Counted from the stretch's first letter, positions 18,093-64,000 are shown. The stretch: DNA of 64,000 bases from Amphiscolops sp. MND2022 (GCA_964187785.1 OZ076409.1:50842001-50906000), one strand, 5' to 3'. Numbers and translations are program-made. The notes: a model not told the origin generated them from the letters alone.

Positions 18093-18115
18093 CATTACGA
18101 TACATATCCCCGCAA
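18093..18115 (+). repeat. Element A left terminal inverted repeat
   Basis: First 13 bp match the right end perfectly; one mismatch and one indel over 22-23 bp. Confidence 0.92.
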
Positions 18116-18414
18116 GCAAGTTCCAAGATCTTGCGACTTGCATTAATAACCAATCACAGTGAGTTATTACGATGTTGACTGTTTTACACACTTTTCTCCT
18201 ATTACACCAAGTGATAATTAGTTACACTGAATGACTAAAATTCACTAATTGACTGGTTTACACTATTTCCCGGTCCATAAATTTACACTAATTGACTGAA
18301 TTTCGCACTGATGCAGTACTACGCACTTTGACTAAATTACGCGATTTTCCACTACGCATTTTGACTGAATTACCCCGTCTTACTAATTACGTGGTGTAAA
18401 TTAGTCAAATAGTG

Positions 18415-18942
18415 TAGCACAGTAATGAACTTGACTATTTTACGCGTTTTGTGAGTCATTGGTTTACCTATATTAAAGATGGTTTTATAACCTTTGTTGT
18501 GAAGATTGAAATGCATTAATTTCAGTTCCGAAGATTGATGTTTGAGTTAATGTAAAAAAACATCAATGTTGGTTGATGATTTGTATTGGTGATCTAAGTG
18601 ATTCGAATTTATTCACGAGAATTCAAATCATAAAGTTTATGTTTAAAAATATTGCTTACTGTCATGATCAGTAAGAAATAGGTTCAAATCATAAGGTACC
18701 GTTGAAAATTTTGCTTACTGTCATGATCAGTAAGAAATTAGTTCAAATCATAAGTTACCGTTGAAAATTTTGCTTACAGTCATGATCAGTCAGAAAAAAG
18801 TTCAAATCATAAGGTACCGGTGAAAATTTTGCTTACTGTCATGATCAGTAAGAAATTAATTCAAACAAAGCAGTAAAACGAACTTAAGAGAATTTAGGTT
18901 AATTTTTTCTGAGAAATCATTTTAAATTGGAGAAGATTTGAT
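18415..18942 (+). repeat. ~530-bp subterminal direct repeat, copy 1 (contains ~59-bp tandem units)
   Basis: TAGCACAGTAATGAACTTGACT...GGAGAAGATTTGAT is nearly identical to 43282-43809. Confidence 0.92.
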
Positions 18943-19195
18943 ATTTAATATGATTTGATGGTTTGATGTTGAAGCATGTTTTGTAAGTGTTCCCCAGATT
19001 TGGAATATATTTGAATAACAAAATATTTGAATAACAAATATTGGAAGTTTTGACAACAAGTAGTCATGTTTTGTTTGTTTGACAGTGAGCAAAGTGACGA
19101 GAAACTCTTTGAAGTGAAGTGTCCAAAATGCAGATGGAAAAGCTTCATTCCCAAGAAAAACTGAAACTTCCAGAAATACCCAAATACTTCATTTT

Positions 19196-19395
19196 NNNNN
19201 NNNNNNNNNNNNNNNNNNNNNNNNNNNNNNNNNNNNNNNNNNNNNNNNNNNNNNNNNNNNNNNNNNNNNNNNNNNNNNNNNNNNNNNNNNNNNNNNNNNN
19301 NNNNNNNNNNNNNNNNNNNNNNNNNNNNNNNNNNNNNNNNNNNNNNNNNNNNNNNNNNNNNNNNNNNNNNNNNNNNNNNNNNNNNNNNNNNNNNN
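19196..19395. other. Assembly gap (200 N)
   Basis: Run of N. Confidence 1.
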
Positions 19396-20133
19396 CCCAG
19401 AAGAGTGTGCTTGCTATTTGTTTCTTGTAGGAGATAGCTTTCTAGAGAATAGAGTCATGGTCAGGAAGCAATTAAGTCAAATCATTAAAATACGATCGAG
19501 AAATTTGCTTACTGTCATGATCAGAACTGTTCATTTTAATATATCGTCAGCCAATTAAGTTCCTCCCGCTATATATTTATTCAATTAACGCAATTTGCTG
19601 AGCAGTGCAAGATTATAAGGTACTGAAATCCAATTGACTACAAGGATCGGTGGCATAAACGGTAGCATACAAGGCTGTCGATCTCTAGGACTGGGTTCAT
19701 TTCCCGGTGATGAAATTTTTTTTCATAATTGAAATTTAATTGGAATAAAAAATCAAAATTATACAAGATTACGGAACCAAAAATTGTCTAAATATTGTCA
19801 ATGCATACAGTGGGGGTAGAGGCTTTTCTTCTACAGTGGGGGAAATATCAGCCGGTGAAATTCTGAGAAAAGATCCTCAAGTTAACGTTGAGATCCGTTT
19901 TTCGAGAGAGAAATAAAAGATTTTGGCGAAAAAAAAGAATTAAATTGATCATTTTTTTTCATCATGACACCTTCAAGGGTCACCTTCGTCGTCATGTTTC
20001 TTTTCCAATGATTCTTTTTTTCTTTTCTTTTCACAACACATAATCATCATGATAATGATTATGATGATCAAATAAGCTCTTGATAAATGCAAATATTTCA
20101 AAAAATTCAAACATTTTTTACATTAAATGAACA

Positions 20134-21426: not shown

Positions 21427-24400
21427 TTACTTTGGAATGAATTTTGAAGTAGCCTCAAGATTAAATTTGTACGAATTACCTGTCTCGCGGGGAATGGAGG
21501 TGCATTTCAATATCCCGATTGACTTCATAGTCTCAGCCACGGAAGGGTGCTGGTATGCAACAACTTCAGGTGTTGAGATGTGTTGCTCGTACTGCCGCTC
21601 TGGGGGGGATGCTACTAAGGAGGAAAGCAAAGGGTAAGGGGCGAGAACGATCAGCTCATCATTTGTGAAGGCGCTGTCAGGAATTCTGTCACCATCATCG
21701 TTTCTCGTTGTCCACTTCGCAGGATAGTGAGCTCGGGACAGGTTCAAATAACGGGACAGGTCTGACAGGCAAGCTACAGAGACTTGGTTCTCAAATCTGC
21801 TGAGGGTGAATATCTGATCGTCAAGATATTCTCTGGAGAAACGAGGGTAGAGCTGAAAAATAAAAGATGTCAATACTAAAGATCTTCCTCAAATTGAATA
21901 CTTCAAGTTCTCATTCTGAAAATGTTTAGTCATTCAAAAAACAATGTTCCCGTTACATAATCGAAAACAACTTGTTCGCAACAACTAATCTCACCATTTG
22001 CACTTCCTGTTCATTGTAGATGCTGTCGATTGCCCTATGCATCACACGGAAGTCTCTAATCATCATACAGCCTGAGGACTGTGCAGCTTTGTGGAGCAAT
22101 ATGGCGAACAGCTCAGGAAGACCTGGGAACTTGTCATGCGCTGGAAAGGATGACTCATTCTCAATGGAAGATCGAATCAAATCGGAGTGGCCTTCTGCGA
22201 GAAAATTCGACCCCACAGCGATTGAGTTCCCTTTCGTGAGGACGAAGTGCAGGAATTGTGATGGCATCACAAGTATGTCACCAGGTTTCACAGTGATCAC
22301 TGCACATCCGCCCTCCAAACGTTTATGGCAAGCGAAAAATGTTGGCCTGTAACAAAACAGAAGAACATCAGTTTGTTTTGATATCCATAAACCAGAATGG
22401 TTGATAAATATTGGTTGAGAAATTTGAAAGATCGAAGAAAGCTTTCAAAGGTTCATTGTGCCTCAACTTGAATGTTTTGAATACATCAAAGTTTGAAGAG
22501 GTTTAATGAATTCATTTCATCGTTTTAAACAATATTATTTTTCCAGAACATCATTTATAAATCATTGAATTAACAAAACTTAACCATAAATTAAAAAAAC
22601 TGATTTGATTGATGTTTTTTTTAAAAAAATCGGATTTTAATTGATTCCTGATACTAAAACATTTTGAATACAATGAAATTCAGCAACATTTGGACTATTA
22701 TTAGCTATTAAAATTGGGTCCACTAACTGTGCATCTGTCTCTTGGCTAGTGTATTGATTGAATAGCTCAATATTACTCTGCGTCGGTGCCACTAGGAAAA
22801 AAATCTTCTCGCCCGTAAGTACAGTGTACTTCACGGACGTTGCAGAGAGGTCCTGGTGCCAAGTGGTCTGGCATCCATCGTTCGACACGAGCAGGTAATA
22901 TGAGGTAGCACAAGAGAACGGTTCTGATCTGTCTCCGAGGATCTCATCAACAAAGGGGTTGATGGATGTTTGCTGAATCATCGTCGGGACAGTGTACAAT
23001 TTCTGAAAAAAAAACCATAATTGGGATTAATCTCAAACCGATCATGACAGTAAACAAAATGGGTTGATACCATAATTGGGGTTAATCTCAAATCGATCAT
23101 GACAGTAAACAAAATGTGTTGATATCATAATTGGGATTAATCTCAAACCGATCATGACAGTAAACAAAATGGGTTGATACCATAATTGGGATTAATCTCA
23201 AAGTGATCATGACAGTAAACAAAACACAAAAATTGCACCTTTGGTTTCAATTGAATGTCGATTACATTCAGAGGGTAGAAAGGGCTGCTGGTGTCATCCC
23301 GGAGGAACTCATCCCGCACAGCGTCAAGGGTCAAATCACGTGTCTAAAAGTGAGAAAAAAGAGCAAATCACACCCCTGAATTAAACCATCAATTCAACTT
23401 TCTGTTTGAAATTTGAAATACTTTTTCGAATAGTATTTACTGTTTCGAGAAATTTTGTTTTGAAGTCACTTTGTTGTGAAATGAGCATGAATACTTGATC
23501 AATTTTACCTCTCCAAGTTTTGCTGACTTGACGTTGATGGTATGATCCGGATGCTGGAGATTCTGGGGTTGGAGAAGCTTCACCAGCTGATCGAAAAATG
23601 GCTTTTTGGCTTGAGGCAGTTTAATTTGCCGACAATGATCAACCCCATTCTGCCAAACTATGGGGATACCATTCCTGATCAACTGAGAGACTTTCCTCGC
23701 TTGATCTTTTATGGGACCATTCCATCTCGCAATAGGGAACTCCGGGGAACTTAGCGGTACGTCCAGACAAAATTGGAAGTATGCAGGAGAGCCAAAAACA
23801 TCAGGGGGCGTGGCATGAAAGTCACTTGGAGCGGGACACTCGCTTGATGAGGGGGAATCGGATAGGTCATCAACCTGTATAAGTAGAAAACGACACTTTA
23901 TGACACATAACAGCGGAATACGGGACAGTGAAAAAACGAACGAGCTGGGAAATTGAAGCCAAAATTATGTACTGTTGAAGTCTCCTGCATGTGAGCATGC
24001 TAATTATTCAATTCCCCAGAAGTATTTAAAACCTCCCACTTTAAAAAAAGAAATATATGCCTTCTACATCATAATGATTACGAATTAAAATTAAATTGAG
24101 TCAAGTTGATATTCAGTATTGGGGATGATTTTGGGTAATAACTGATCTTATGAGTCAATGATATAATGATTTAGTACCTTACTAATGATTTAGTGCCTTG
24201 CATAACTCACTTGTGTCTTGCAGCTCGGATGTTTGGAGATGTGGATTTGCAGGTCGTATGAATACGAAAACGTCTTGCCACATCCATAGCACTTGTGACT
24301 TTGGCGTCTCCCTCCGCGTGCTGCCTCTGTAAATTACAATCATATTTTGCACCGTGACGTTGAATCATGGATTAACAGATTTGATCTGATGTTCAAAGCT

Positions 24401-25108
24401 TAGATACAATTGTTTACTGGCGCGATAGGATCAAAGTAGCGATTTGATCTGATGTTAAAAGTTTAGATAATTTTGTTTATTGGTATGATCGGATCAAATT
24501 AGCGATTTGATTTGATGTTAAAAGTTTAGATAATTTTGTTTACTGGCATGATCGGATCAAATTAGCGATTTGATCTGATGTTCAAAGTTTAGATAATTTT
24601 GTTTACTGGCATGATCAGATCAAATTAGCGATTTGATCTTATGTTCAAAGTTTAGATAAATTTGTTTACTGGCATGATCAGATCAAAATAGCGAATTGAT
24701 CTGATGTTCAAAAGGTAAATAAATTTGTTTACTGGTATGAACAAATCACTTACTGTACTTGTACATGGTGATCGCTTCTCCTTTTCTTTTCAAGTCACGC
24801 TGCTTCACACAGTATTTGGTCAACTGATGCTTCTTCATGAACTTGGCCTGCATCAGTACCTGTCCACACTGCTCGCAAGTTCGCTGCCTGAGCTTCCACT
24901 CCTCTCTTGACTCATGGAGGCAGGTGGACTTCTGGTGGCGCGTGACGTTGCTTTTCACTTTGGACGAGTAGTCACAAGTTCCTTGTCCGCAGTGAAAAAG
25001 CTTGCTCGACGGAGAATATCGAGGTGTGGGTGCTGCCGGGGTAGAATCGGAACCCTGAGGGGATGCTGCTGAGGTAGAAGTGGCGAGAGCACTTTCACTT
25101 GGAAACAT
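21427..25108 (-). CDS. Spliced C2H2 zinc-finger (x3) + JmjC histone demethylase-like gene (KDM7/PHF8/KDM2 type), element A
   Basis: Phase-compatible GT-AG exons: 25108-24754 (two fingers), 24326-24211 (third finger CYGCGKTFSYSYDLQIHISKH), 23874-23509, 23343-23239, ~23002-22728 (WHQDLSATSV..GEKIFFLVAPT), ~22346-21996 (PGDILVMPSQFLHFVLT..GSNF), ~21852 onward. H-x-D...H iron triad is intact. The 3' end is uncertain and may continue to 21150 by frameshift. Confidence 0.88.
23006..23225. repeat. Intronic 55-bp tandem repeat x4 carrying the element A motif
   Basis: CATAATTGGGATTAATCTCAAACCGATCATGACAGTAAACAAAA repeated every 55 bp. Confidence 0.9.
24375..24740. repeat. Intronic ~63-bp tandem repeat x6 carrying the element A motif
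   Basis: GATTTGATCTGATGTTCAAAGTTTAGATAATTTTGTTTACTGGCATGATC units. Confidence 0.9.
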
Positions 25109-25189
25109 GAAAACTAAAAAATGGGATCATGAAGGTTTTCTCAAAATATTCTTAGGAAGAAATTGAAAAAGCTGAAAGACTATAGAAAA

Positions 25190-25625
25190 ACATGAAAAGG
25201 TCTGAGTGATCATGCCAAAACCATGAAAAGGCATGAGTCACCCTGTCAAAAACATGGAAAAGTCTGAGTGACCATGTCAAAAACAAGAATTGGTCTGATT
25301 GACAAGGTCAAAAACATAGGAGGGTCTGAGTGACCATGTCATAAACAAGAATAGGTCTGAGTGACCATGTCAAAACTTGAATAGGTCTGAGTGACCATGT
25401 CAAAACTTGAATAGGTCTGAGTGACCATGTCAAAAACATGAATATGTCTGAGTGACCAATTGAAAAACATGAAAAGGTCTGAGTGACCATGTCAAAAACA
25501 TGAAAAGATTTGACTGACAATGTCAAAAACATGAAAAGGTCTGAGTGACCAATTCAAAAACATGAAAAGGTCTGAGTGACCAATTCAAAAACATGAAAAG
25601 CCTTGGGGTCTGAGTGACCATGTCA
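25190..25625. repeat. ~30-33-bp minisatellite (GGTCTGAGTGACCATGTCAAAA)
   Basis: More than ten units. The same unit occurs inverted at 33515-33910, 37113-37388 and 37828-37870. Confidence 0.9.
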
Positions 25626-27447
25626 TGAAACAACATGAAAACACACGATGAACTAAATTTAAACTGAAACACTTTGATTCCTAGTGATTTTTTCTTTTGC
25701 ATGGCTTCGATAGCCAGACATTGTCTTATAATTAACATTTGACAATAGAGCGACGTGGACATTAATGTTTTTGTTGAAATTGAGGCTGCAGGATTTGTCA
25801 ACGTTGAACTTCAATGAAACGACCCAAGCTGTCCCGTCAGCAACTTTGTCCCATTCGTGTCCTAGAACAGTGTCCCACACAGCTGTTGAGTACTGTCCTT
25901 CTTCTTTCAAACTGTAAGTGACTGAACCTCCTCCAGCAGGAATACCAAATGCATGAATCAAAACGGAGCAGCTTGGAGCAATGTCTTTCTTGAAGTCCCT
26001 AATTCTAGATTGATCGCTATGAAAATGCATCAGCAAGTGCTTCAGGTTAGAGTACGCCCAGTATACTTTCGCATAATTATTGTCAAAAGGAACATCTGGG
26101 GTACTATGAAGTGGCAAAGTCCGATCTTTCTTCATGTAAGAAAGAGGTACCGTTGATTTGAAGAAAGGGTCATCTTCTTTCTCAACTTCGATGAATAGTC
26201 TCGAGTCTTCGATGAAAATCCCGAACACCCTCCACGAGAACTCAGTGCCCACCACGTTTACGATGTCTCATTTAACTGCAACCCCATTTTTGATTGGGAC
26301 GGAAACAAGCTCTACACGACCTTCAGGTTTCGTTAGGAAAGGTTCGGCTAGTCCTCCAGAAAGCACCTTCGCTAATTTCGGTTTCTTTCTAGAAGGCAGT
26401 TCAGTTCGGATGTTGCAATCGTCTTCTGTATCTTCTTCTGTTTCTTCTCGAAGCGTCACTCTCTTTTTCTTGTGAGATTCTTCATGCTTTCCCGGTCGTA
26501 GTTGAAAGTAAGAAATTGTCGTAGTCTTGGGGTCTGAGTGACCATGTCATGAAACAACATGAAAACACACGATGAACTAAATTTAAACTGAAACACTTTG
26601 ATTCCTAGTGATTTTTTCTTTTGCATGGCTTCGATAGCCAGACATTGTCTTATAATTAACATTTGACAATAGAGCGACGTGGACATTAATGTTTTTGCTG
26701 AAATTGAGGCTGCAGGATTTGTCAACGTTGAACTTCAATGAAACGACCCAAGCTGTCCCATCAGCAACTTTGTCCCATTCGTGTCCTAGAACAGTGTCCC
26801 ACACAGCTGTTGAGTACTGTCCTTCTTCTTTCAAACTGTAAGTGACTGAACCTCCTCCAGCAGGAATACCAAATGCATGAATCAAAACGGAGCAGCTTGG
26901 AGCAATGTCTTTCTTGAAGTCCCTAATTCTAGATTGATCGCTATGAAAATGCATCAGCAAGTGCTTCAGGTTAGAGTACGCCCAGTATACTTTCGCATAA
27001 TTATTGTCAAAAGGAACATCTGGGGTACTATGAAGTGGCAAAGTCCGATCTTTCTTCATGTAAGAAAGAGGTACCGTTGATTTGAAGAAAGGGTCATCTT
27101 CTTTCTCAACTTCGATGAATAGTCTCGAGTCTTCGATGAAAATCCCGAACACCCTCCACGAGAACTCAGTGCCCACCACGTTTACGATGTCTCATTTAAC
27201 TGCAACCCCATTTTTGATTGGGACGGAAACAAGCTCTACACGACCTTCAGGTTTCGTTAGGAAAGGTTCGGCTAGTCCTCCAGAAAGCACCTTCGCTAAT
27301 TTCGGTTTCTTTCTAGAAGGCAGTTCAGTTCGGATGTTGCAATCGTCGTCTGTATCTTCTTCTGTTTCTTCTCGAAGCGTCACTCTCTTTTTCTTGTGAG
27401 ATTCTTCATGCTTTCCCGGTCGTAGTTGAAAGTAAGAAATTGTCGTA
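25602..27447. repeat. 924-bp-period tandem duplication of the 3' part of the unknown cargo gene
   Basis: ORFs 25659-26255 and 26583-27179 are offset by 924 bp and differ by one residue. Confidence 0.95.
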
Positions 27448-27851
27448 AGATCAATTCCATCTAGCTGGTCGTCAAAAAATTTCCCGTCTTCAATTGGGAC
27501 GACTACAGGTGACACAAGCATCTGTTTTCTAAAGGGATCATTTTTCATGACATATCCCTCTTTCACGTTCCTCGTCAGTACTCCATCTCGTTCCATTGAT
27601 TCCGTGTAATGAATCGGATCATTTCTGACTCGCTTTTCTTTGAAGTAGCCAAGAACTTCAAGACTGAGGACCAACTCAATTCGCCTGCTGTAACTTGCGG
27701 CTGTGCCCTCGTTTTCTCTGATAGGCCATTTTTCAGGAAATTCGTGGAAGCGTGGTGGCGCTTCTACAATTCCGTTAGCGTACTTGCTTGAGTAGTTCAG
27801 CCATTGTACGGTGGCCTGAAAAAAAGCCATCATGGTCATGGTCATGATCAC
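26583..27851 (-). pseudogene. Unknown cargo gene of element A (~420 codons, one in-frame TGA at 27192-27194); homologue of 48327-49640
   Basis: ORFs 27192-27851 and 26583-27179 are in the same frame. Shared blocks with the B gene: NDPF, VP..NG....I....G.EF, D..LG..WD. True start may be further upstream or spliced. Confidence 0.78.
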
Positions 27852-28419
27852 CTGAATCTATTTGAATATAATTGGAAAATGGATATTGGTGGGAGTTTCC
27901 CAAAGTGTAAGGCTTCATTTATTGCTAGTTTTATGAACAAAAAAATGCTCCGCTCCCATTTTTTGTTTTCCCGGCGATTTTCACACACAAAAACTATCAC
28001 GGGATTGAGAAATGTATCATGATACATGTATCAAGATATCATTTTGAAGTTTATAAATTTAAAACATCTTGAAGCTTGAAGCTCATACTAATACAGTTTA
28101 CAGTGTTTTTAGGAAAAAACTATACCGCCAGAATCATATTGTTTGGGAAATTTTTCCGTCAAAATTTTTCTGGAATCAAAAATTTGTAAGTGGGTCAAAA
28201 AATGAAAAAAAAACTAAAGAATGATGTTTTGGAAATTGCTCTCGACCAATGAAATGAGCGCGTGAGGCATTGATCAGCAAAGGATATTTGTTTGTTTGGT
28301 TTCCTTCCGCATGAAATGTTGCTTCTTCCAGAATCACTACTGTTTAGTCACGAAACGTGAAAAATGAAAAAAAAATTCTGAAAAACTTCGGTAGTGGAAA
28401 AAACAGAAATGAGCAAAAA

Positions 28420-33910: not shown

Positions 33911-33947
33911 TGACGTTTCATCCCAACGTTTTAAATTTTAGTTTGAC

Positions 33948-37827: not shown

Positions 37828-37907
37828 CTCAGACCTACAAGTTTCTTTTTTACATGGTCACCTTTTGACATGACGTTTCATCCAAACATTTTTTATTTCA
37901 GTTTGAC

Positions 37908-50410: not shown

Positions 50411-50469
50411 GTAAATTCTAAACTAAATTCTGTTCATTTCTAAACTAAAGAATTTGATAAAGAACAATA

Positions 50470-53453
50470 AACTATAAAAGTTTGCTCCAGGCAGCTTCTT
50501 CGTTCACCATAGTGAATTTTTCTCAAGGCTTCTTTTGCAATGTAGGCTCGTTGCGAAGGCCAGCTTGTAGAGAGCAATTTTCTTGCTCAAAAAGGTTTCG
50601 AATGTGTCGCAGCTTGCAATTAGAGGCGGCAGGGTGTCTAAACAGATCATAATGATGGGGTTTGTGATTTTTTTTCAACAGATTCAATTTCAAGGTTTTC
50701 CGATAGACTAGTGGTCAAATATCTATGTAAAGTTTAACATCAAGATTTCTAATATTATGACATCAACAATTGCGGCTCCTAATCTATATCGAAGACGTCC
50801 TTCTCCCTTTGAAGGATGCTGCGGTCACGTGTGCAGGTCTTCTGCATTGCTTCGGGGATTTCGGGCTGGTGCAATGGTCCAATTCGCACTTCTTTGACAG
50901 GCCCCGTGAAGGCGTACACTGGCCCTTTTGGGTCGCGATAGGGCTTCTCCGGACCCCTCAATCCCAGTTGAGTTAAATTGAAAACTGGATACACCTGGTA
51001 ACAAAAGGCATTGACAATGATGAATAGAGCGAATTCAATGAGAAATGTGGAAAGTTACAATTACATTTGCAGAAAATACGTTTAAATTGTTAGGCAGTTC
51101 GAAACGAGAACCAATAAAATCCGTAGTTCACAACCCAGTCCGTGGAAGAGATTAGTTTTTTTTCTACATTATCAGCTACCATTCATAATCAACAAACATT
51201 GATTACCATTTTGATGGCGTCGAGCTCACTGCTGATCTGCTCTTTCAGAAGAGTCAGTTGTGGGCTGGAGAAGAGGGGGCTCCATGATCCTCTCAGGGAA
51301 TTGAGTTTCCGCTGGAGTTGTCGTATTTTGAACTGTAGCACAGCATAAACACGAACAACTCCGGGAAAAACCTCTTCGTCGTCTATTTCCGGCTGACTGG
51401 CGTTGAGGTGACTGTCCACAATCAGAGGGAAATGTGTGACAGCGAGGAAGTTGGAGGCAAAAGCAATGGCATCTCCCTTTGTTGCCACTATATGTGGTCA
51501 GCGTGCAGGCAAAACGAGGATGTCGCCTGCCTCCACCACAAGTTTGTGGACCCCACCTGTCAGGGCCTTCAGGTTCCCGAAGGAAGTTGGTCTAAATAAA
51601 AACAAATTAGTATATATTTGAACGAAACAACTGGTTCAATGATTTTGAATCATGTGCATGATTGATAATGTGCTCTTCGCAAAAGGATGACTTTGAGATG
51701 AGTATGTTTTCAGTACATGATGTGAGTACATTTACTTTTTTGTGGGGATATTGCTCCACTCCTCAAAGAGCTGCAAATTTGAGCTTGTCGGCTCCACCAG
51801 CCAGAAGATCTTCTGCCCTCGGGCGACAGTATAAAAGGCAGTCGTGCTGGAAAAGTCGACATGCCACGGCGTGAGACACTGGTCATTTGAGACCAGCAAA
51901 TAATTGGAAGTAGCCTGAGTGAAATGCCCTGCTACATCCACACACTTATCTGCAAGTTGGTCAGCCGCACAGAATCGGACAAAGTCTGGTACTTGGAAAA
52001 ACTAAACGAAAACGACAAGACATCAGCAACCGGTTTCAGAACAAAGACTCTTTACAGTGGTCGCCATTTTCAACATCCATTTAGTTGCTAAAAATTTGAA
52101 CAATAGAAGGGTGCATCATGTATTTCACTGACTTTTGGCACTGTACAGACACCAAATTCAAAGAGTAATTTTTTCCAATATGAGCCCTTCCAAGATATGA
52201 TAAGAAAACTTACATTCCGTTCGAGTGCAATGTCAATGACATTGACAGGAAATGTCCCAGTGAGTGCTGCTGAGGGCCCCGCTCGCTGCTCGTCCAGGTA
52301 CCCGCTCACTGTTAAAGACCTGACCTGAAATTCAAAAAAATATATATTTTAAGCATACTCCTCTGATATTACTTTACCAATGTTTAGATAACTTACAGTG
52401 AAAACCACTGCCAACGATGACTTAGTGGATACTAAATCTCAATATGTTTTGATTCAACGTATACAATAATTTTTATCACTAATGGTAAAACGCTATACTT
52501 GAATGAAGTTTGTGAAATTCGAAAAAAAAAGAATGGCGGGATATGTTCACCTGTTGGTCATGTGGCAGCCGTGATGAATTTGCAGCAGGCTTCGCTGCAG
52601 GATTAGCCAAGTGCTGCAGCAAGAACTCCACTTGGTGGACGAAGTCCTCAGCGGGCAAAACTGGGAGCTTCAAACCTCGCGAGTTCATAGCCCCCTTCTT
52701 CCACAATATCGGCTGGCCACGAGAGAGTGCTTTCAGGACCATGCCGTTTTCGTCTTCTTGCTGATTTTCCCACCTGCAGCAGTTCCAGGGCTCCTCTGAA
52801 AGCGGCATGTCCTCTAAGTACTTTACGAAGAGACTTGATCCTTCGTACGCCCGTCGACTAGGCTCGCTCGTCATTGCCATGTCGTTTTCTTTGTGGAGGG
52901 GAAATCGTTCCAGGTGTCTCTGTAGGGAGTCACTCCGGGGAAATTCCTCACCACGGGATGTGCAAGGATATTTTTTGCTGGGGTTGGCAGTTCCTATAAA
53001 GTTTTATTGAAAAAAATTTAAACTAAAAACTTTGATCGCACATTTTGACTAAACTTATGTTCGTATTATGTTCGTATTTATTTGTACCTAAATCCTAAAC
53101 TGTCACACTAAGAATTAATATAAGTTTGAGGCTTTCTTGTTTGTATTCACGGCTTTGTGATATAAGTTTTTCACATTTTTTTTAAGAAAAATGTGGTGGG
53201 GGTACGAAAAGAGCCGCAAATCGTTGACATAGTTGATCTACTTACTATACTTTCTTTCATTTTGGGGTATGTCTGTCGTGCAGTACCTCGCTTTCTCGAT
53301 GTGGCGCTTGAGCGTTAGAAGGGTGGCGAAGACCCTCTTGCAACGGGGACATGCTTTGTTTTGCGGCTGCTTTGTACCGCAGGTTTTTTGGTGCCTCTCA
53401 AAATTCGTGCGGCGGTTCGACTTGTAAGAACAGTTGGGGCAACTGTATTCAGT
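50470..53453 (-). pseudogene. Spliced C2H2 zinc-finger + JmjC demethylase-like gene, element B
   Basis: Exons 53453-53246 (two fingers), 52993-52551 (degenerate third finger plus JmjC N-flank), 52324-52214, ~51980-51736 (WHVDFSSTTAFYTVARGQKIFWLVEPT), 51591 onward (GDILVLPAR*PHIVATKG..ASNF). TGA at a normally Trp position. 5' and 3' ends uncertain. Confidence 0.85.
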
Positions 53454-53725
53454 CTGTAGAAGCAAAAACAACATTATAGTTTATCCTCGAAGCGTCTTAC
53501 ATGTAAACGCCAAAATTTCAAACCGCTAAAAGATTTTACAACCTCCCATTTCAAATAAAAACCTGTTTTTCCAATCAGAAAAAGGAGGAAACGAACAAGC
53601 AAAAAAATGGAACATGCCAAAATTGCTAAACCACAAATGAATTTAGAACGCCACCATTTTAAAATGGAGATAAATATCTCGGTTGTTTAACAATATGGTT
53701 AAATAAAAACAAACAAATAACAAAG

Positions 53726-53795
53726 CGCTATGGCCGAGTGGTAACCAACTAGACTATGAAGCCATAGATCGTGGGTTCGAATCTCTATCGTGTCG
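53726..53795 (+). repeat. tRNA-derived (SINE-like) remnant; duplicated at 56291-56360
   Basis: A box TGGCCGAGTGG and B box GGTTCGAATC; stems pair poorly. Confidence 0.55.
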
Positions 53796-53969
53796 ATCTT
53801 ATGTTATCACAGAAAAACTGAGTATACCTAATTTTTCAATTAATATGTAAAACTTTGATCTTGCTATCGCGAATTTTAGTTTGATTGTCTATGTTAACAA
53901 CAACTTTTAATCTTTTCTTCATATCGTATCATTACTTTCTGATTGGAACAATAACTAATTGATTACAAT

Positions 53970-54510
53970 AATTTACTCACGGTAAGTACCAAAACCAAAG
54001 CGCTGTTTCTTAAAATTGACTTTTTTTACTCACGGTGGATACTTGAATTTTTTCCAACTGAAACTAACATTTTTGCTGACAGTAGGTACAATTTTTTTTC
54101 TAACTCAGGTTTTTCCACGGCTCACGGTGGATACAAAAAATTTCTATACAAATGAAGGACAATACTTTACTCACCGTGTGTACCAAAAACGAGTACAATA
54201 ATTTACTCACGGTAAGTACCAAAACCAAAGCGGTGTTTCTTAAACTGAGTTTATTTTACTGACGGTGGATACTAGAACTTTTCCAACCGAAACTAACAAT
54301 TTTGCTGACAGTGTGTAAAAAATTTTTTCTAACTAAGGATTTTTCCACTACTCACGGTGGATACAAAAAATTTCTATACAAATGCAGGATAATACTTTAC
54401 TCACGGTGTGTACCAAAAACGAGTAGAAGAACTTACTCACGGTAAGTACCAAAACCAAAGCGGTGTGTATTAAAACTGAGTTTTTTTTTCTACTCACAGT
54501 GGATACTCAA
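53970..54510. repeat. ~230-bp tandem units rich in TTACTCACGGT
   Basis: TTACTCACGGTAAGTACCAAAACCAAAGCG at ~53973, 54203, 54433. The motif also occurs inverted (ACCGTGAGT) at 63383-63470. Confidence 0.85.
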
Positions 54511-57500
54511 ATTTTTCCAACTGAAAATGACATTTTTATTTCGTATCCCAAATTGTAGATTTTCATGAAAGAAACTAACCATTGTGAAATGAGGAAACAG
54601 GCAACGTTTAGGGAATCTAGATTTTAAATACTAATTAGACAAAGGTAAGAGAAAGGCTTAAAAAATGCTTCTTGAATTAAACAAAACTAGCAAGCGGTTG
54701 AATTGAAAGGTCGAACGACAAAGAATCAATTTCCTGACTAGAAGAACATTTCCTACATCCACTTCGGCAGCCAATTAAAATCGATTTAGCATTCTCGGTT
54801 CCGTAAACGTATGTAACAGTTTTGTTTTATACCGCTACATTTGCACACAAGTTTACTAAATTGACACTTCCGTCAGATTCATTCTAATTGTGCTGAGTGA
54901 ACGAATAGTGTTGAACAAATGAATGGTAAACAAAATATTGAAGCAAAATGAAAAACGGAAAGAGAGCAAACTCCTTCTAGAATACAAAATGACTCAAGTT
55001 TTAACATACCAAAATTTTTGGAAATGCACTTTAGATAATTGAATGTCATCAAGAAAAATAAAAGGAAATAAAAGTTCAATAAGTGTCAATTGAATGAACT
55101 TTCTTGGGATAAATTCAATTTTCAATTCTCAGGGACTAAAAGTGGAGTTTAAAAATCATCTGTCATTTCTTTGGGCTCTGAAACTTCTTATAAAAGAAAA
55201 TCAACTGCAACGTCCTCTAAAATCATGCCAAACTTTTGATTCCGAAAAAAACGGTCTTCGTTTTATGTTCATCGTATAAGCCCCCTCCCCAAACTTTTGA
55301 CCACCAAAACTTCAAAAAAGGGGAGGGGGCTCCTTTGCTGGAATATACGGTATGTTGATTTTGATCATTAACTTTGTTCAAGATTTCTTTCGTCACGACT
55401 ATGAGGGAGTTAATTGTCAATTTTTCTTTAATGTAGTCTGATTTGATTTTTTTGCTGGATATACCAATAATTCACTGAATGTACCCCTTCTGAATTGGTT
55501 TGCAATTGTTTAAGCATTTGTTTGTGGAATCCACTGTCAATGTATTGGTATATGTTAGTCAATTCCGCATATCGCTTTTCGCAGGATGAAGAATACTTTT
55601 CAGAATAGTGGAATCCACTGCAAGAGAAACGTAAGTCTATTTAGAACTAATGCTTTACTGAATGTACCCTTTTGAATTGGTTTACAAATGTTTAAGCTTT
55701 CTTGTCTAAGTTTCCGAGAAAAAAATGTTCAAAAACTAAATTAGTACCACAAGCAAAGATTAAAACATATGTCTTCGAAATCATTTATTGTAACAAGCAT
55801 TTGCAGAAATCAGAGTAAAAGTCGATCATCTGCTGGAGTTTTGTTATGTTTCACTAGGCCGTTTCGGTATCTTTTCAAGGCCACAATGGCTGACGTATTC
55901 GCTATCGATTTGTTATCATCTATTTGATCCATCAAGAGTGGTCGCATGTCATTAATTTTCATCGGGTTGATCAAGAGTCCAGGCCTTATGATATACTTTT
56001 CAGGGTCTAGAATGACGTTACTTTTCATCATTTCGAGTCCGTATTCAACAGTGATGAACATGAAACCCACCGACGCAAATCTTTTGCAGGCCAAAGCTGC
56101 AGGAGACAACTTCTTTTTTGTTGAACACTTTTCATCTTCTCTACTTTCGGCGTCTGTTGACAACTCGCTTTGTTGACAACAGCCAAAATTGCTAAACCAC
56201 AAATGAATTTAGAACGCCACCATTTTAAAATGGAGATAAATATCTCGGTTGTTTAACAATATGGTTAAATAAAAACAAACAAATAACAAAGCGCTATGGC
56301 CGAGTGGTAACCAACTAGACTATGAAGCCATAGATCGTGGGTTCGAATCTCTATCGTGTCGATCTTATGTTATCTCAGAAAAACTGAGTATACCTATTTT
56401 TTCAATTAATATGTAAAACTTTGATCTTGCTATCGCGAAATTTAGTTTGATTGTCTATGTTAACAACAACTTTTAATCTTTTCTTCATACCGTATCATTA
56501 CTTTCTGATTGGAACAATAACTAATTGATTACAATAATTTACTCACGGTAAGTACCAAAACCAAAGCGGTGTTTCTTAAAATTGACTTTTTTTACTCACG
56601 GTGGATACTTGAATTTTTTCCAACTGAAACTAACATTTTTGCTGACAGTAGGTACAATTTTTTTCTAACTAAGGATTTTTCCACTACTCACGGTGGATAC
56701 AAAAAATTTCTATACAAATGCAGGATAATACTTTACTCACGGTGTGTACCAAAAACGAGTAGAAGAACTTACTCACGGTAAGTACCAAAACCAAAGCGGT
56801 GTGTATTAAAACTGAGTTTTTTTTCTACTCACAGTGGATACTCAAATTTTTCCAACTGAAAATGACATTTTTTTTCGTATCCCAAATTGTAGATTTTCAT
56901 GAAAGAAACTAACCATTGTGAAATGAGGAAACAGGCAACGTTTAGGGAATCTAGATTTTAAATACTAATTAGACAAAGGTAAGAGAAAGGCTTAAAAAAT
57001 GCTTCTTGAATTAAACAAAACTAGCAAGCGGTTGAATTGAAAGGTCGAACGACAAAGAATCAATTTCCTGACTAGAAGAACATTTCCTACATCCACTTCG
57101 GCAGCCAATTAAAATCGATTTAGCATTCTCGGTTCCGTAAACGTATGTAACAGTTAGGTTTTATACCGCTACATTTGCACACAAGTTTACTAAATTGACA
57201 CTTTCGTCAGATTCATTCTAATTGTGCTGAGTGAACGAATAGTGTTGAACAAATGAATGGTAAACAAAATATTGAAGCAAAATGAAAAACGGAAAGAGAG
57301 CAAACTCCTTCTAGAATACAAAATGACTCAAGTTTTAACATACCAAAATTTTTGGAAATGCACTTTAGATAATTGAATGTCATCAAGAAAAATAAAAGGA
57401 AATAAAAGTTCAATAAGTGTCAATTGAATGAACTTTCTTGGGATAAATTCAATTTTCAATTCTCAGGGACTAAAAGTGGAGTCATCATCTGTCATTTCTT

Positions 57501-58137
57501 TGGGCTCTGAAACTTCTTATAAAAGAAAATCAACTGCAACGTCCTCTAAAATCATGCCAAACTTTTGATTCCGAAAAAAACGGTCTTCGTTTTATGTTCA
57601 TCGTATAAGCCCCCTCCCCAAACTTTTGACCACCAAAACTTCAAAAAAGGGGAGGGGGCTCCTTTGCTGGAATATACGGTATGTTGATTTTGATCATTAA
57701 CTTTGTTCAAGATTTCTTTCGTCACGACTATGAGGGAGTTAATTGTCAATTTTTTTTAATGTAGTCTGATTTGATTTTTTTGCTGGATATACCAATAATT
57801 CACTGAATGTACCCCTTCTGAATTGGTTTGCAATTGTTTAAGCATTTGTTTGTGGAATCCACTGTCAATGTATTGGTATATGTTAGTCAATTCCGCATAT
57901 CGCTTTTCGCAGGATGAAGAATACTTTTCAGAATAGTGGAATCCACTGCAAGAGAAACGTAAGTCTATTTAGAACTAATGCTTTACTGAATGTACCCTTT
58001 TGAATTGGTTTAGAAATGTTTAAGCTTTCTTGTCTAAGTTTCCGAGAAAAAAATGTTCAAAAACTAAATTAGTACCACAAGCAAAGATTAAAACATATGT
58101 CTTCGAAATCATTTATTGTAACAAGCATTTGCAGAAA

Positions 58138-61100
58138 TCAGAGTAAAAGTCGATCATCTGCTGGAGTTTTGTTATGTTTCACTAGGCCGTTTCGGTATCT
58201 TTTCAAGGCCACAATGGCTGACGTATTCGCTATCGATTTGTTATCATCTATTTGATCCATCAAGAGTGGTCGCATGTCATTAATTTTCATCGGGTTGATC
58301 AAGAGTCCAGGCCTTATGATATACTTTTCAGGGTCTAGAATGACGTTACTTTTCATCATTTCGAGTCCGTATTCAACAGTGATGAACATGAAACCCACCG
58401 ACGCAAATCTTTTGCAGGCCAAAGCTGCAGGAGACAACTTCTTTTTTGTTGAACACTTTTCATCTTCTCTACTTTCGGCGTCTGTTGACAACTCGCTTGC
58501 GGTACAATGTCTATGGAGCTTCAGTTTTGTTCTCATGGCTTCCAATTGATGTTTATCGCCAGTCGCGTTTATTAGGTCCCTTTCGTCTTTGACAATAACG
58601 TAAATATTCAAGATATTTGAATGGGATTTCATTATGTTCTCCGCATTTTCTTTCTCATAAACGACACCTTCCATTTCGAAAATTCTATCTTTGAGGAAAT
58701 CCTGTGTGAGCCCACGCTTGAACCTACCTACAATTGTAAATCTCAATCCTCGTAGAAGGTCACAAAATGTTCTCTTTTCGCCAACGGCAAGGCAGGGTAG
58801 CGTCAAGGGAGTTCTACAAATGTCTAGATAAGTTTTGGCACCCTCTAAAGTCTCTTCAGTCGTGAGTGTTTTCCTTACATGTTCAATCACATTGGATATT
58901 TTTTTTCGGAACTTGTTGAAGAAATATCCAGGAACCGGCAAAACGAAAATCCAGTATCCAGAAATATTGGGTCTTGATGGTAAATGGAGCCACCGCCTCT
59001 CATGGTTCGGGATTGAAAATTTCTGTTCGCATTGAGGTTCGATTTTTCCAAGCCTTCGCAGAGGTGATTCCATGGATTCTCGATGTATCCGCTCTCCACT
59101 AGTTGGGCTATCAATGGAAGCTTGAGCTTGTATGGTGACAGCCCCTTTCGCCCAAAGAGGAGCGAATTGATTTGAAAGTATGTTTCAGCCCATCGTTTGT
59201 AAGTGTCGACATCAAATGTTCCCTGAGTTCTCAACAGAATAGCACACTGGTTTAAACTTTGTCGTAGAAGCTCACAAGCGTCATAAATTGTTATATATCT
59301 TTCTTCGTTTCTTGGATTAATGGGGTCCCGTTTGTCAAATAAATGTGGATGTAAAGACTTAAGTACTTTTGCAGCCCCCAAGTTGTATCCATCCTCACTT
59401 CCAAGTAGTATCTCGGTCGTCCAAACTCCGTCATAAAGGTTCATGATTGTCCCAAATTGAGCACTTCTAAGTTCTTCTGTTTCAGCTATAACTGTAAGTG
59501 CATTCGACCCCGCTAATGACAAAGGTCCTACTGTTCCTGGGGTTTTACCTACGTTCTTGTGGGTGATATTGAACTGAAAAGACGGTCTTTTAGCTTCTCG
59601 GCTGGTCAAATTTTTCTCAAAGCGCTGTATGCTCAAAGCTTCCCAGGGATGTTTGTTGTTAATTACCTTCTGAGCCACTCTTCTAATATCATTCTCGGTG
59701 CAACGCGTTATCATGTGTGTAGCGTCTGGGCAGATTGTTCTGACATCGATTATGCTTGCTAATGCTTCTCTGGGAACATGTTGTCTGAAAGGGATCTTCA
59801 AAGATGTTCGTCTTCCATCGACATCTGAGCAGCGGGTGGGGAGGAAATTTTCATCGCATACATATATCGGAAGTTGTGACGGATGAGAACTTGAACGTTC
59901 AGTTGAAAATCCAAGGACCAAACGCGTCAAGGATGTAATTTCAACGCCCAACGCTTGTAGTACTTTTGTCTGGCGGTGTAGCCATCCACATTCTTGCTTA
60001 CCCAGGATAGACGGGCCAAAGTTTTGTTCCATTGCATATCGGCCATCTTTGCCACGATATGATGCAAAACAGAAGGCAGCTTTCGATGATTGGCTGCTAA
60101 CTGTGGTGTTCAAAATTCTGAATGCTAGACGCGTTACCTCAACCCCCCCCATTTCGCAACCGTCACCCCAAATATCAATTTTGAGGCCTTGAAGATTGGT
60201 TTTTTGCAGTTAAACTAATGACGCAAACGTCATTGCTTTCAGTAAACTGACTCGAAATCCAGAATAGGTTCGCTCAGGCTCGCAAATTGTAACAAACAAT
60301 TTCATTATGAGGCTAGTAGCTCTTTTGATGTGACGAATTGACGGTACTAGGCTGCCACTTCCTAAACCAACCGGAACTAGCCTTTGTCGAATTGCATTGA
60401 GGATATCATCCATGTTGCAGGTTTCATTTTGTTTGAAAGTTCGTACCTAAACCACTCGGAGGAACCCCTGTCGTCCAAAAAACCCGTGAACTAGTTTCGA
60501 ATGTGATTACCGCTTGCGCGTTACCGCATAAACGACACCTTCCATTTCGGAAATTCTATCTTTGAGGAAATCCTGTGTGAGCCCACGCTTGAACCTACCT
60601 ACAATTTTAAATCTCAATCCTCGTAGAAGGTCGCAAAGTTTTCTCTTTTCGCCAACGGCAAGGCAGGATAGCGCCAAGGGATTTCTACAAATGTCTAGAT
60701 AAGTTTTGGCACCCTCTAAAGTCTCTTCAGTCGTGAGTGTTTTCCTTACATGTTCAATCACATTGGATATTTTTTTTCGGAACTTGTTGAAGAAATATCC
60801 AGGAACCGGCAAAACGAAAATCCAGTATCCAGAAATATTGGGTCTTGATGGTAAATGGAGCCACCGCCTCTCATGGTTCGGGATTGAAAATTTCTGTTCG
60901 CATTGAGGTTCGATTTTTCCAAGCCTTCGCAGAGGTGATTCCATGGATTCTCGATGTATCCGCTCTCCACTAGTTGGGCTATCAATGGAAGCTTGAGCTT
61001 GTATGGTGACAGCCCCTTTCGCCCAAAGAGGAGCGAATTGATTTGAAAGTATGTTTCAGCCCATCGTTTGTAAGTGTCGACATCAAATGTTCCCTGAGTT

Positions 61101-63210
61101 CTCAACAGAATAGCACACTGGTTTAAACTTTGTCGTAGAAGCTCACAAGCGTCATAAATTGTTATATATCTTTCTTCGTTTCTTGGATTAATGGGGTCCC
61201 GTTTGTCAAATAAATGTGGATGTAAAGACTTAAGTACTTTTGCAGCCCCCAAGTTGTATCCATCCTCACTTCCAAGTAGTATCTCGGTCGTCCAAACTCC
61301 GTCATAAAGGTTCATGATTGTCCCAAATTGAGCACTTCTAAGTTCTTCTGTTTCAGCTATAACTGTAAGTGCATTCGACCCCGCTAATGACAAAGGTCCA
61401 ACTGTTCCTGGGGTTTTACCTACGTTCTTGTGGGTGATATTGAACTGAAAAAACGGTCTTTTAGCTTCTCGGCTGGTCAAATTTTTCTCAAAGCGCTGTA
61501 TGCTCAAAACTTCCCAGGGATGTTTGTTGTTAATTACCTTCTGAGCCACTCTTCTAATATCATTCTCAGTGCAACGCGTTATCATGTGTGTAGCGTCTGG
61601 GCAGATTGTTCTGACATCGATTATGCTTGCTAATGCTTCTCTGGGAACATGTTGTCTGAAAGGGATCTTCAAAGATGTTCGTCTTCCATTGACATCTGAG
61701 CAGCGGGTGGGGAGGAAATTTTCATCGCATACATACATCGGAAGTTGTGACGGATGAGAACTTGAACGTTCAGTTGAAAATCCAAGGACCAAACGCGTGA
61801 AGAATGTAATTTCAACGCCCAGCGCTTGTAGTTCTTTTGTCTGGCGGTGTAGCCATCCACATTCTTGCTTACCCAGGATAGACGGGCCAAAGTTTTGTTC
61901 CATTGCATATCGGCCATCTTTGCCACGATATGATGCAAAACAGAAGGCAGCTTTCGATGATTGGCTGCTAACTGTGGTGTTCAAAATTCTGAATACTAGA
62001 CGCGTTACCTCAACCCCCCTATTTTGCAACCGTCACCCCAAATATCAATTTTAAGGCCTTCAAGAGTGGTTTTTTGCAGTAAAACTAATGACGCAAACGT
62101 CATTGCTTTCAGTAAACTGACTCGAAATCCAGAATAGGTTCGCTCAGGCTCGCAAATTGTAACAAACAATTTCATTATGAGGCTAGTAGCTCTTTTGATG
62201 TGACGAATTGACGGTACTAGGCTGCCACCTCCTAAACCAACCGGAACTAGCCTTTGTCGAATTGCATTGAGGATATCATCCATTTTGCAGGTTTCATTTT
62301 GATTGAAAGTTCGTACCTAAACCACTCGGAGGAACCCCTGTCGTCCAAAAAACCCGTGAACAAGTTTCGAATGTGATTACCGCTTGCGCTTCTTTTTCGC
62401 CACATGCTACGTTTTTGATGCTGATCTTTGAGAATTGTGGCTAATCCGTGAATAGGTATACCATGCATTCTAGCAAAACTCAGGACTTTGGTCCAAAAAG
62501 TTTTCCTATTAGTTCTGTGCCACCTTTTGAGTTGTCATTGCATAATATTCATATCTGATCGTTACTGGTCTTCTGCATTATTAACTTCTGGTGTCTTCTG
62601 TAGCACTTCCTCTTCTTGGAATGTTACTTCAAGGGGTGTTTCTTCGTTTCTTTAACCATCTCATGTTGAGAAGAAAACTTATCATTTGTAAAAGTACCGA
62701 CATCGGGAAAAAATCTGGTGTTAAAGTATTTTGCAACGAATTTTCTTCTCTTCTCGTTCCAAGGTAAGTCTTTATAGCCCCGCAGAATTAAAAGTTTCAT
62801 TATTTTCGATGCAACAAAAACAGATCCCTGGGGCTGTCCTTTAATTGGTATTTTTTGAAAAAGATCGTCTGTCTTCAGAGTGGTCCCTACGACCATTTCA
62901 GCAACGATTGAAGTAAGTTTCCGTTGACGATTTTGTAACGTGTTTCCTGATATAAAGTCTAGTATTTTGGAATCTATGAATTCTTTCCCATCATCAAGTG
63001 ATAGATTGAACTTTTCGAATTCTGACAATTCTGAACTTTTAGACAATGAAAATGAGCGTGTCAATGGTGTATCAAATCGTCGATAATGATGAAGCCGAAA
63101 AACTATCAAAATCCATTTCTTTGTGTTTCCCTCCTTTTGCGTCTTCTGATACCCCTCAATTTTAGCCTCAACTTCAAATAAATTTAATCTTGCAACATTT
63201 TTCTCACAGT
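58138..63210 (-). pseudogene. RAG1/Transib-like transposase-BRCT of element B with an internal 1871-bp tandem duplication; disrupted
   Basis: IDIWGDG, PDATHM, LSPYKLK, LCEGLEKSN, RTMRGG, BRCT-like LRGLRFTIVGRF...LDPEKY. Several stops and frameshifts; second catalytic Asp segment missing; start uncertain. Confidence 0.82.
58656..62389. repeat. 1871-bp-period tandem duplication within transposase B (58656-60519 / 60527-62389)
   Basis: ORFs 58887-60152 and 60758-62029 are near-identical and offset by 1871 bp. Confidence 0.95.
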
Positions 63211-64000
63211 ATTACCGCACGCTGTTTAAATAATTCTTCAACACCTGTTTGAAACTATTTGATTGCACGCGTTGAACTAAAACTACAAGGTCATACGTGC
63301 GCTCACTAGTAGGTGATAAAATTAGGTGTGATTGTTCCCAAAAAATCATGAGGAAGGATTTTCCAGTGATTTTTTTGTCTCCACCGTGAGTCGGTTGTCA
63401 ACCGTGAGTCGGTTGACATTGCATAGAGTATTTGCCAGCAAATGATTCTGTTGTTTTTTGACCGTGAGTTGACCGTGAACACAGTTCAAGCACTACAACT
63501 TCTTGGCAAAAAATGGTGAAGAAAATTTTTTCAATTGAAGAAACTACACTTTATCATGACAAAAAAAAAGACGTAAACCAAATTTTTAACAAACTTTTTG
63601 TACTAAGGAAAGAATTTTATAATAATAGAGAAGAGAGGAACGCATCAGGTGTGAGTTGTAACCATTGAAGTTGTAAACATTGCAACTATAAAGAGTGATT
63701 TTGAAGTTCCTACCATTTGCCAATTGCTTCACAGAATTTGTATGAATTTGACATGAAACAAAGAAAAATGAAAAAGACTGGAACTTTTTCCTTTTCCCTA
63801 CACTTTTCAAGATGTTGTTTTTGCAATTACAGTAGACTTCGGATAATCGAATATCAGCTAAATATCGAAATCAAAATTTCGGGTAAACGAATAAAAATCT
63901 TCGGCAGTATAGATCATACTAGCATGTTTTCGTTTTATCGAATTTTTTGCTGAATCGAAAATTTTTCGCCGTTCCTGCATAATTTGAACCGAACCTAAGT

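Follow-up and report, generated by a model that had tools for sequence, protein, structure and literature searches.

Transposons are usually viewed as targets of histone methylation, and a few are known that carry a counter-measure, in each case a single one: VANC, a TET/JBP gene or a SET gene. Transib transposons and the RAG system share 5-bp target-site duplications (TSDs) and ends resembling the heptamers CACAGTG and CACAATG, and the PHD finger of RAG2 is a histone-mark reader. Here we describe two large neighbouring inserts, elements A and B, in the right 46 kb of a 64,000-nucleotide stretch of DNA (hereafter the window) that forms part of the 1.07-Gb eukaryotic assembly of Amphiscolops sp. 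MND2022 (GCA_964187785.1 OZ076409.1:50842001-50906000). Each contains homologues of the same four genes: a transposase gene, a SET gene, a zinc-finger JmjC (ZnF-JmjC) gene and a gene first listed as unknown, here called the barrel gene after the predicted fold of its product.

The closest described elements belong to the CACTA-Mirage-Chapaev-Transib (CMCT) clade, which according to PMC12730594 comprises EnSpm/CACTA, Mirage, Chapaev, Transib, Plavaka, ESTA as well as Lanisha, with CA...TG ends and TSDs of 2-5 bp. A 2-bp TSD together with CA...TG ends is described for an animal CACTA element in PMC6004678, and C(2)C and H(3-4)H motifs are given as common to CACTA, Mirage, Chapaev, Transib and RAG1 in PMC12730594 and PMC4079192. 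PMC12730594 also lists SET genes on oomycete HarbingerS and MuDR transposons, TET/JBP genes on fungal Kyakuja/Dileera/Zisupton, Plavaka, EnSpm and other elements, and anti-silencing factors on plant VANDAL elements. Elements A and B resemble these carriers in encoding factors that would act on silencing marks and that are kept across related families. Each of those carriers, however, has one such gene, whereas elements A and B combine a reader-like protein with a methyltransferase and a demethylase; moreover, the predicted target is histone lysine methylation instead of DNA methylation, and the transposase lineage is different. No transposon with both SET and JmjC was found in the full-text literature searched, which excludes subscription journals and Repbase Reports.

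We consider it rather probable that A and B are decayed copies from two families of one recently active group of autonomous transposons, 16-26 kb long, which carries a three-gene cargo acting on chromatin. A and B are real cut-and-paste mobile elements, as seen from their defined ends, 2-bp TSDs, empty paralogous sites and gene-less derivatives with the same ends. Element A interrupts a highly repeated retroelement (more than 2,500 candidate paralogues). In 4/4 fetched uninterrupted paralogues the sequence runs straight through the site with a single TT; A inserted there precisely and duplicated 2 bp of its target. Its inverted ends are imperfect and 22-24 bp long (19/24 positions match), starting with CATTACGATACAT followed by (A/G)TCCC. 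Contigs C2 and C3 hold sister copies that are also full-length, at 24.6 and 25.0 kb. The right end of element B, ...GGCACTGTAATG, lies 697 bp past the window end, giving a total of 19,905 bp with AT as the TSD on both sides. A sister copy of B on contig C3 measures 16,614 bp (ends match 21/24, TSD AA), and the greater length of the window copy is due to internal tandem duplications of 2.3 and 1.87 kb.

Copies occur on each of the 13 large contigs, and a 300-bp query from either end of A matches more than 400 candidate places at 95-100% identity. In the 20 A-family end loci fetched, the ends read CATTACG...CGTAATG in every case (one end mutated to CGT), while families B and E have CAWTACAGTG...CACTGTAATG. 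Both ends could be read for ten further A-family elements, consisting of seven gene-less derivatives of 0.7-4 kb and three long copies (24.6-30 kb). Matching duplications flank nine of these ten (AA, CT, AA, CG, TC, CG, CT, TA and CG), against a chance expectation of about 1/16 for a 2-bp match. Families C and D gave no convincing end pair in the 30-36 kb retrieved for them, and the end pair found for family A' leaves its barrel gene outside. The sequence-only reading had proposed two large adjacent inserts, A of 26.4 kb with both ends and B of more than 19 kb, with CA(T/A)TAC...GTA(A/T)TG ends. The inserts, their ends and TSDs were located, and ends of this type were read in A, B and further copies; the two are neighbours but do not abut, since 264 bp of the retroelement lie between them.

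Genome searches with transposase, SET, barrel and JmjC queries returned 1,092-1,199 first-look candidates each (1,165 for the SET query from B). About 100 of the more than 1,000 candidates per query were scored, and these lists lean to the query's own family. Among the scored transposase matches, 25/97 keep an open frame of 1,000 aa or more, and in family A', which is 71-72% identical to A, 59/62 matches are free of stops in the matched 612-residue stretch. The many transposase copies with open frames indicate that the group was recently active, and the short gene-less derivatives would be mobilised in trans. Both window copies are decayed, and intact copies exist elsewhere in the genome. In element A, a premature TGA at 34973-34975 of the transposase replaces the Arg codon of sister copies, a frameshift near 32877-32944 disrupts the SET gene, and the barrel gene contains a 924-bp tandem duplication (25599-26523, repeated at 26523-27447). 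In element B, the JmjC gene has an in-frame stop at 51498-51500, just ahead of the second His, and the transposase is broken by a frameshift and by the 2.3-kb and 1.87-kb duplications, the latter repeating 58656-60519 at 60527-62389. Separately, the start region of the A transposase (33866-34086) is duplicated at 37828-38047 with 89% identity, about 0.7 kb past the gene end.

Sampling covered 26-36 kb around a single copy from each of the families A, A', B, C, D and E, and all four genes were found together in 6/6. With strands given as + and -, the order is JmjC-, barrel-, SET+, transposase+ in A; JmjC-, transposase-, SET-, barrel+ in A' (as fetched); SET-, barrel+, JmjC-, transposase- in B; SET-, barrel+, transposase+, JmjC- in C and E; and transposase-, SET-, barrel+, JmjC- in D. 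The SET and barrel genes are always adjacent and divergently transcribed, and the remaining order varies. The families are strongly diverged. Between A and B, the transposases share about 29% identity over about 430 residues, the JmjC exons 34-45%, and the SET proteins 32% over 69 residues (E 1e-6). The barrel proteins were matched by profile-profile comparison only (hhalign), with 95% probability and E 3.8e-8 for the N-terminal part and 88.6% and E 2.6e-6 for the C-terminal part. The identity matrices of transposase, SET and barrel proteins have in common the grouping (A,A') versus (B,(D,(C,E))), and transposase identity across this deepest split is 33-37%.

When families E and C are compared, the ratio of non-synonymous to synonymous substitution rates (dN/dS) is 0.128 over 989 codons of the transposase, 0.120 in the barrel gene and 0.15-0.22 in the JmjC exons, versus 0.36-1.18 between decaying copies of the same family. 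For SET in the same pair dS is saturated (dN 0.19), and between A and A' it is saturated in 7/8 segments, so that neither comparison gives a ratio. Genome-wide, at least 84 of 94 transposase-containing clusters include another of the genes and at least 15 include all four; these counts are lower bounds and not a fair test, given the roughly 100 candidates scored per query and the family bias of the match lists. The co-occurrence in all six families, the concordant matrices and the low dN/dS together argue for a co-inherited functional set rather than chance capture. The ratios indicate that the three further genes are under purifying selection in this transposon group, a pattern that is expected if transposing lineages need all four genes. 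The four genes, their orders and strands in A and B, the strong divergence of their proteins and their retention as a co-inherited module had all been put forward in the sequence-only reading. Sequence and profile comparison confirms the homology as real but low, and the module is borne out by co-occurrence in this genome and by the dN/dS of 0.12-0.22 between families.

For the transposase, no Pfam transposase family at E <= 0.01 matched the window's open reading frames (ORFs), intact ORFs of 1,017-1,175 aa or 18 homologues; the plant-type CACTA model (Transposase_21 and relatives) found no match in the ORFs or these homologues either. In a PDB sequence search the single sequence had no match, and a profile gave only weak BRCT matches (E 0.66-2.2). 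A scan of 1.84 billion representatives yielded 193 homologues. The 20 homologue clusters looked up contain no named transposase record (NCBI or UniRef) and all derive from metagenome or Logan assemblies, one also holding a 48-residue named bacterial hypothetical protein. An AlphaFold2 model of an intact 1,017-residue C-family transposase was built from 63 sequences (predicted local distance difference test, pLDDT, 83.2; predicted template modelling score, pTM, 0.76). Foldseek returned 47 matches at E <= 1e-3 (best 3.3e-7), and all those listed are RAG1, BbRAGL or HzTransib. VIA-align placed model residues 221-744 on mouse RAG1 459-1008 (Z 19.1, root-mean-square deviation (rmsd) 3.9 Å, 414 residues), spanning the whole core from the dimerisation domain through the C-terminal domain, with Z 16.8 for HzTransib and 16.6 for BbRAGL. 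Residues 826-971 match BRCT domains of 53BP1 and MDC1 (Z 11-11.7, rmsd 2.2-2.3 Å, 92-94 residues), followed by those of BRCA1 and Rev1. This is supported by PF00533 in homologue P0022 (22.7 bits, cut-off 21.3) and by weak BRCT_2 matches in four others. Invariant or nearly invariant acidic residues include D316 (first strand), D400 (end of the fourth strand), D470, E692 and E695. From conservation and secondary-structure order, D316, D400 and E692 (C-family numbering) form the probable catalytic triad. Conserved Cys and His residues in the 63-sequence alignment are C468, H473, H689, H699 and C814. The model, which is of high confidence, thus predicts a RAG1/Transib core fold with a C-terminal BRCT domain and agrees with the DDE-BRCT transposase that had been read from the sequence.

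By ends, TSD size and fold, the group appears to fall in or beside the CMCT clade and is not a wholly new kind of transposon. The likeness comprises the 5'-CA...TG-3' termini, a TSD within the reported range of 2-5 bp, the RAG1/Transib-type DDE fold in which a large insertion precedes the catalytic Glu, repeat arrays in subterminal and internal positions, and many short non-autonomous derivatives. In contrast to the clade, the termini are CAT or CAA and not CAC, the transposase ends in a BRCT domain, four genes are conserved rather than one or two, and no Pfam CACTA or RAG1 model gave a match. With the Transib/RAG systems (HzTransib, ProtoRAG BbRAGL and RAG1-RAG2) the group shares the whole RAG1 core and, as in ProtoRAG, a second gene beside the transposase, here with a product predicted to be reader-like. 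It differs from them in a TSD of 2 bp instead of 5 bp, in the ends CATTACG and CAWTACAGTG, which do not match the heptamer CACAGTG, in a sequence identity of 10-14%, in the BRCT tail, and in a partner predicted to consist of Tudor/BAH-like barrels and not of a Kelch propeller with a PHD finger. To our knowledge no CACTA-Mirage-Chapaev (CMC) transposase structure has been solved, and the RAG1-core fold therefore cannot tell Transib from CMC.

The sequence-only reading had suspected an undescribed superfamily. The gene set is indeed absent from the full-text literature searched, but fold, ends and TSD fit in or beside the CMCT clade. We regard it as possible, if on the unlikely side, that the group constitutes an undescribed superfamily-level branch of the RAG1/Transib-CACTA assemblage in which a dedicated histone-mark reader, equivalent in function to RAG2, was a constant partner of the transposase and to which a writer and an eraser of lysine methylation were added in this host lineage. 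The element would then hold a full write-read-erase circuit setting the chromatin state required for expression, targeting or break repair. Somewhat more doubtful is that the families are already catalogued in Repbase or Dfam, for this species or a related one, as EnSpm/CACTA- or Mirage-type elements, which would make this an annotation gap only. CA...TG ends with a 2-bp TSD are known for animal CACTA (PMC6004678) and the CMCT clade (PMC12730594), and published cases of SET genes on transposons include the oomycete HarbingerS and MuDR families (PMC12730594). Against such an entry stand the lack of a SET and JmjC transposon in the literature searched, the lack of a named transposase in the 20 homologue clusters and of a Pfam transposase match, and the non-conservation of the C(2)C and H(3-4)H motifs.

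For the SET gene, PF00856 scored 27.5-41.8 bits against a cut-off of 22.4 in five ORFs from families A, A', B and C, and all 14 PDB sequence matches are KMT5A/SETD8 (E 2e-5 to 2.5e-4). A sister copy of A encodes SET as one 372-aa ORF, and families B to E retain the motifs NHS/NHC and FDY. For the JmjC gene, the HxD exon has 14 PDB sequence matches, to PHF8, KDM2A, KDM7 and PHF2 (phmmer, E 1.4e-7 to 5.8e-5). The iron ligands HxD...H are kept in 6/6 families as WH(Q/T/V)D and (L/I/P)H(F/T/I)V, the Pfam Cupin_8 match is below its cut-off, and weak C2H2 fingers precede the JmjC domain. These results uphold the SET and ZnF-JmjC genes named earlier, and by sequence similarity the former is closest to KMT5A/SETD8 (PR-Set7) and the latter to PHF8/KDM2A/KDM7. 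Unlike these host enzymes, the genes are multi-copy, NYR replaces NHS in A and A', and PHD, CXXC and F-box modules were not detected, C2H2 fingers being present instead. In element B, the arrays of ~183-bp repeats at 55463-55700 and 57791-58028 are inverted relative to that at 49942-50418, and together they bracket the JmjC gene, which may have moved or been exchanged as a cassette. The end-like word of the bracketing repeats is of the CAATAC type.

A model of the 434-residue E-family barrel protein (pLDDT 72.8) shows several small barrels. Foldseek matched it to Spt5 KOW, AGDP3/ADCP1 Agenet, the SETDB1 triple Tudor, FMRP and the UHRF1 tandem Tudor (E 1e-4 to 6e-3). A wide VIA search that does not lean on Foldseek gave Tudor matches over residues 5-73 (Z 6-8) and BAH/PWWP/Tudor matches over residues 212-282 (Z 7-9), Z 6-9 being the range where a common fold arrangement is possible. 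The top ESM Atlas score, 0.78, fell short of the useful range, and a Tudor/Agenet lead at 0.76 was weak. The modelled fold is suggestive of Tudor/BAH-like barrels and hence of a putative histone-mark reader. A metagenome contig scan with 12 transposase sequences found 20 loci with transposase relatives (27-48% identity, contigs of up to 7.4 kb), and in 5/20 the barrel gene adjoins the transposase on the opposite strand. In one of these five pairs, a retroelement integrase lies directly beyond the barrel gene. Among viral contigs, 38 stretches match a pattern and none encodes a relative. As the sole companion of the transposase in these metagenome relatives, the barrel protein appears to be its old partner, and since only these two genes are seen there, SET and JmjC may be later additions.

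We propose that the barrel protein would guide or activate the transposase via methylated histone tails and would tie it to a particular histone-methylation state, comparable to the role of the RAG2 PHD finger for RAG1. The two enzymes, SET and JmjC, were probably added in this lineage and would rewrite lysine methylation on and around the element by erasing a silencing mark (H3K9 or H4K20), by writing the mark of the reader, or both. Such rewriting would keep the element expressed and transposable, and the BRCT domain would plausibly connect excision breaks to the host break-repair machinery.

The accessory genes could instead serve break repair rather than anti-silencing, steering repair at the donor site or of the integration gap, which we think unlikely. 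In such a scheme a KMT5A-like enzyme would write H4K20me1, the Tudor-like protein would read it in the manner of 53BP1, the BRCT domain would dock on repair factors that are phosphorylated, and resetting the mark would fall to the demethylase. H4K20me1 is among the marks removed by PHF8, and 53BP1 recognises methylated H4K20 at breaks. The scheme is favoured by the exclusive PDB matches of SET to the H4K20 monomethyltransferase KMT5A (14/14), by the best BRCT structural matches (53BP1, MDC1, BRCA1 and Rev1) and by the Tudor-like matches of the N-terminal barrel. On the other hand, these specificities are guesses based on remote similarity, many proteins outside repair have BRCT or Tudor folds, and sequence cannot separate repair from anti-silencing, the two being compatible.

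Large DNA transposons do capture host gene fragments, and the genes are broken in both window copies; SET, JmjC and barrel genes might thus be useless passengers captured by chance from the host. This is very improbable in view of the full set in 6/6 families whose transposases are 33-37% identical, the dN/dS of 0.12-0.22 between families versus 0.36-1.18 between decaying copies of one family, the retained iron ligands and NHS/FDY motifs, and the occurrence of the barrel gene beside the transposase in other organisms. A segmentally duplicated host gene cluster without any transposon, to which the tandem and segmental duplications inside and beside B might point, is refuted by the precise inverted ends, 2-bp TSDs, empty sites, short derivatives and presence on all 13 large contigs, and deserves practically no credence.

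Several observations weigh against the reading of A and B as copies of one active group with a chromatin-acting cargo. The flanks of one of the ten A-family end pairs, 30 kb apart on contig C11, do not match, and neither do those of the family E end pair (22/24 match; TC versus AG; single copy). No CxxC or Hx3-4H column pair corresponding to the C(2)C and H(3-4)H motifs is conserved in the 63-sequence alignment. The identity pattern of JmjC disagrees with that of the other three genes: B is the outlier, with 42-51% identity to all others, and A/A' are 53-57% identical to C/D/E. Strictly joint inheritance of the gene set is therefore not upheld; faster evolution of the B gene and gene exchange are both possible. 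The SET proteins of A and A' have NYR for NHS in the cofactor motif, in ORFs that are intact in sister copies, so that an inactive or atypical enzyme is possible. Identity of the SET and JmjC proteins to KMT5A and PHF8 is 20-35%, too low for reading substrate specificity, and the reader-like assignment of the barrel protein depends on middling fold scores (Z 7-9) for SH3-like barrels, which are common. Finally, none of the 20 metagenome contigs showed SET or JmjC next to the transposase, but at up to 7.4 kb they offer little flank.

Table 1. Positions of elements A and B, their genes and their boundaries, counted from the first letter of the window.
Feature	Position	Strand	Remarks
Element A, decayed autonomous copy	18093-44528 (26,436 bp)	.	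Both ends, TSD, sister copies
Left TSD copy of A (TT)	18091-18092	.	Single TT in 4/4 uninterrupted paralogues
Left terminal inverted repeat of A, CATTACGATACATATCCCCGCAAG	18093-18116	+	451 candidate genome matches, 95-97% identity
A ZnF-JmjC gene, at least five exon-like ORFs	21427-25126	-	Weak Cupin_8 and zf-C2H2; PHF8/KDM2A/KDM7, E 1.4e-7
A JmjC ORF	21427-21888	-	
A JmjC ORF, second His	21953-22444	-	LHFV
A JmjC ORF, HxD	22637-23026	-	WHQD
A JmjC ORF	23437-23964	-	
A JmjC ORF, C2H2 fingers	24746-25126	-	
A barrel (unknown) gene, Tudor/BAH-like barrel protein (predicted)	25659-27857	-	hhalign homology to B form; fold of E-family orthologue
A SET gene	31198-33464	+	N-terminal ORFs 31198-32095, SET domain 32357-33464; PF00856 27.5 bits
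A transposase gene, two exons	33947-37095	+	Intron ~35042-35280; 193 homologues; BRCT-like C-terminal part
Right terminal inverted repeat of A, ...TTGCGGGACATGTATCGTAATG	44505-44528	-	411 candidate matches, 98-100% identity
Right TSD copy of A (TT)	44529-44530	.	Flank read and empty paralogues
Interrupted retroelement between A and B	44529-44792 (264 bp)	+	Continues the sequence ending at 18092
Element B	44793-64000 in window (19,208 bp)	.	Left end CAATACAGTGCCAAAAGTGGG; starts CAATACAGTGCC...
B SET gene	45915-47728	-	SET domain in ORF 45915-47027; PF00856 30.9 bits; NHS and FDY kept
B barrel (unknown) gene	48261-49640	+	Divergent from SET
B array of ~183-bp repeats	49942-50418	.	Each repeat begins with end-like word CAATACATTGACAGTGG
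B ZnF-JmjC gene	51189-53432	-	HxD reads WHVD; second His PHIV
B transposase gene, broken	58138-63211	-	Sister-copy open frames up to 881 aa

Reading frames in the window are broken up in the manner of spliced genes. The RVT_1 reverse-transcriptase domain of the interrupted retroelement lies at 16317-16835, 1.3 kb upstream of element A; the retroelement is frameshifted near the insertion site, and its reading frame there is uninformative on TSD size. Elements A and B are independent insertions 264 bp apart in one retroelement copy, and their closeness could be due to chance or to a preference for the retroelement sequence or its chromatin. Within element A, a 533-bp subterminal segment occurs as a direct repeat (18415-18947 and 43282-43814, 96% identity) with 59-bp tandem units inside, and a run of N at ~19190-19430 marks an assembly gap. 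A word of about 20 nt, TTTG(T/C)TTACTG(G/T)CATGATCAG, occurs about 19 times in A in both orientations, between and inside genes (18648, 24406-24761, 29292, 32122, 32284, 38102-38379, 41368-41475 and 43515; inverted at 23016-23279), and in part forms tandem arrays of 55-63 bp. It may serve as a binding site for an element protein or as a common promoter element. The segment 62810-64000, the right end of B and its flank recur about 5.4 kb downstream (4181-6070 of the following 10 kb) with GTAGTG for GTAATG, and this second copy represents either a segmental duplication or an assembly artefact. Outside both elements, an AT-rich block (GC ~33%) of ~180-bp tandem repeats lies at 8275-9732 between retroelement-like ORFs.

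The set of methyltransferase, demethylase and reader-like protein would be the most complete transposon-borne chromatin toolkit among those referenced here. A RAG1-core transposase accompanied by a probable chromatin reader would provide an independent comparison for the origin of RAG1-RAG2 cooperation, and since both intact copies and short derivatives are present, the group is a testable system. For genome annotation it is a hazard: more than 1,000 candidates per gene would give rise to spurious SET, JmjC and BRCT 'host genes' in this and related genomes.

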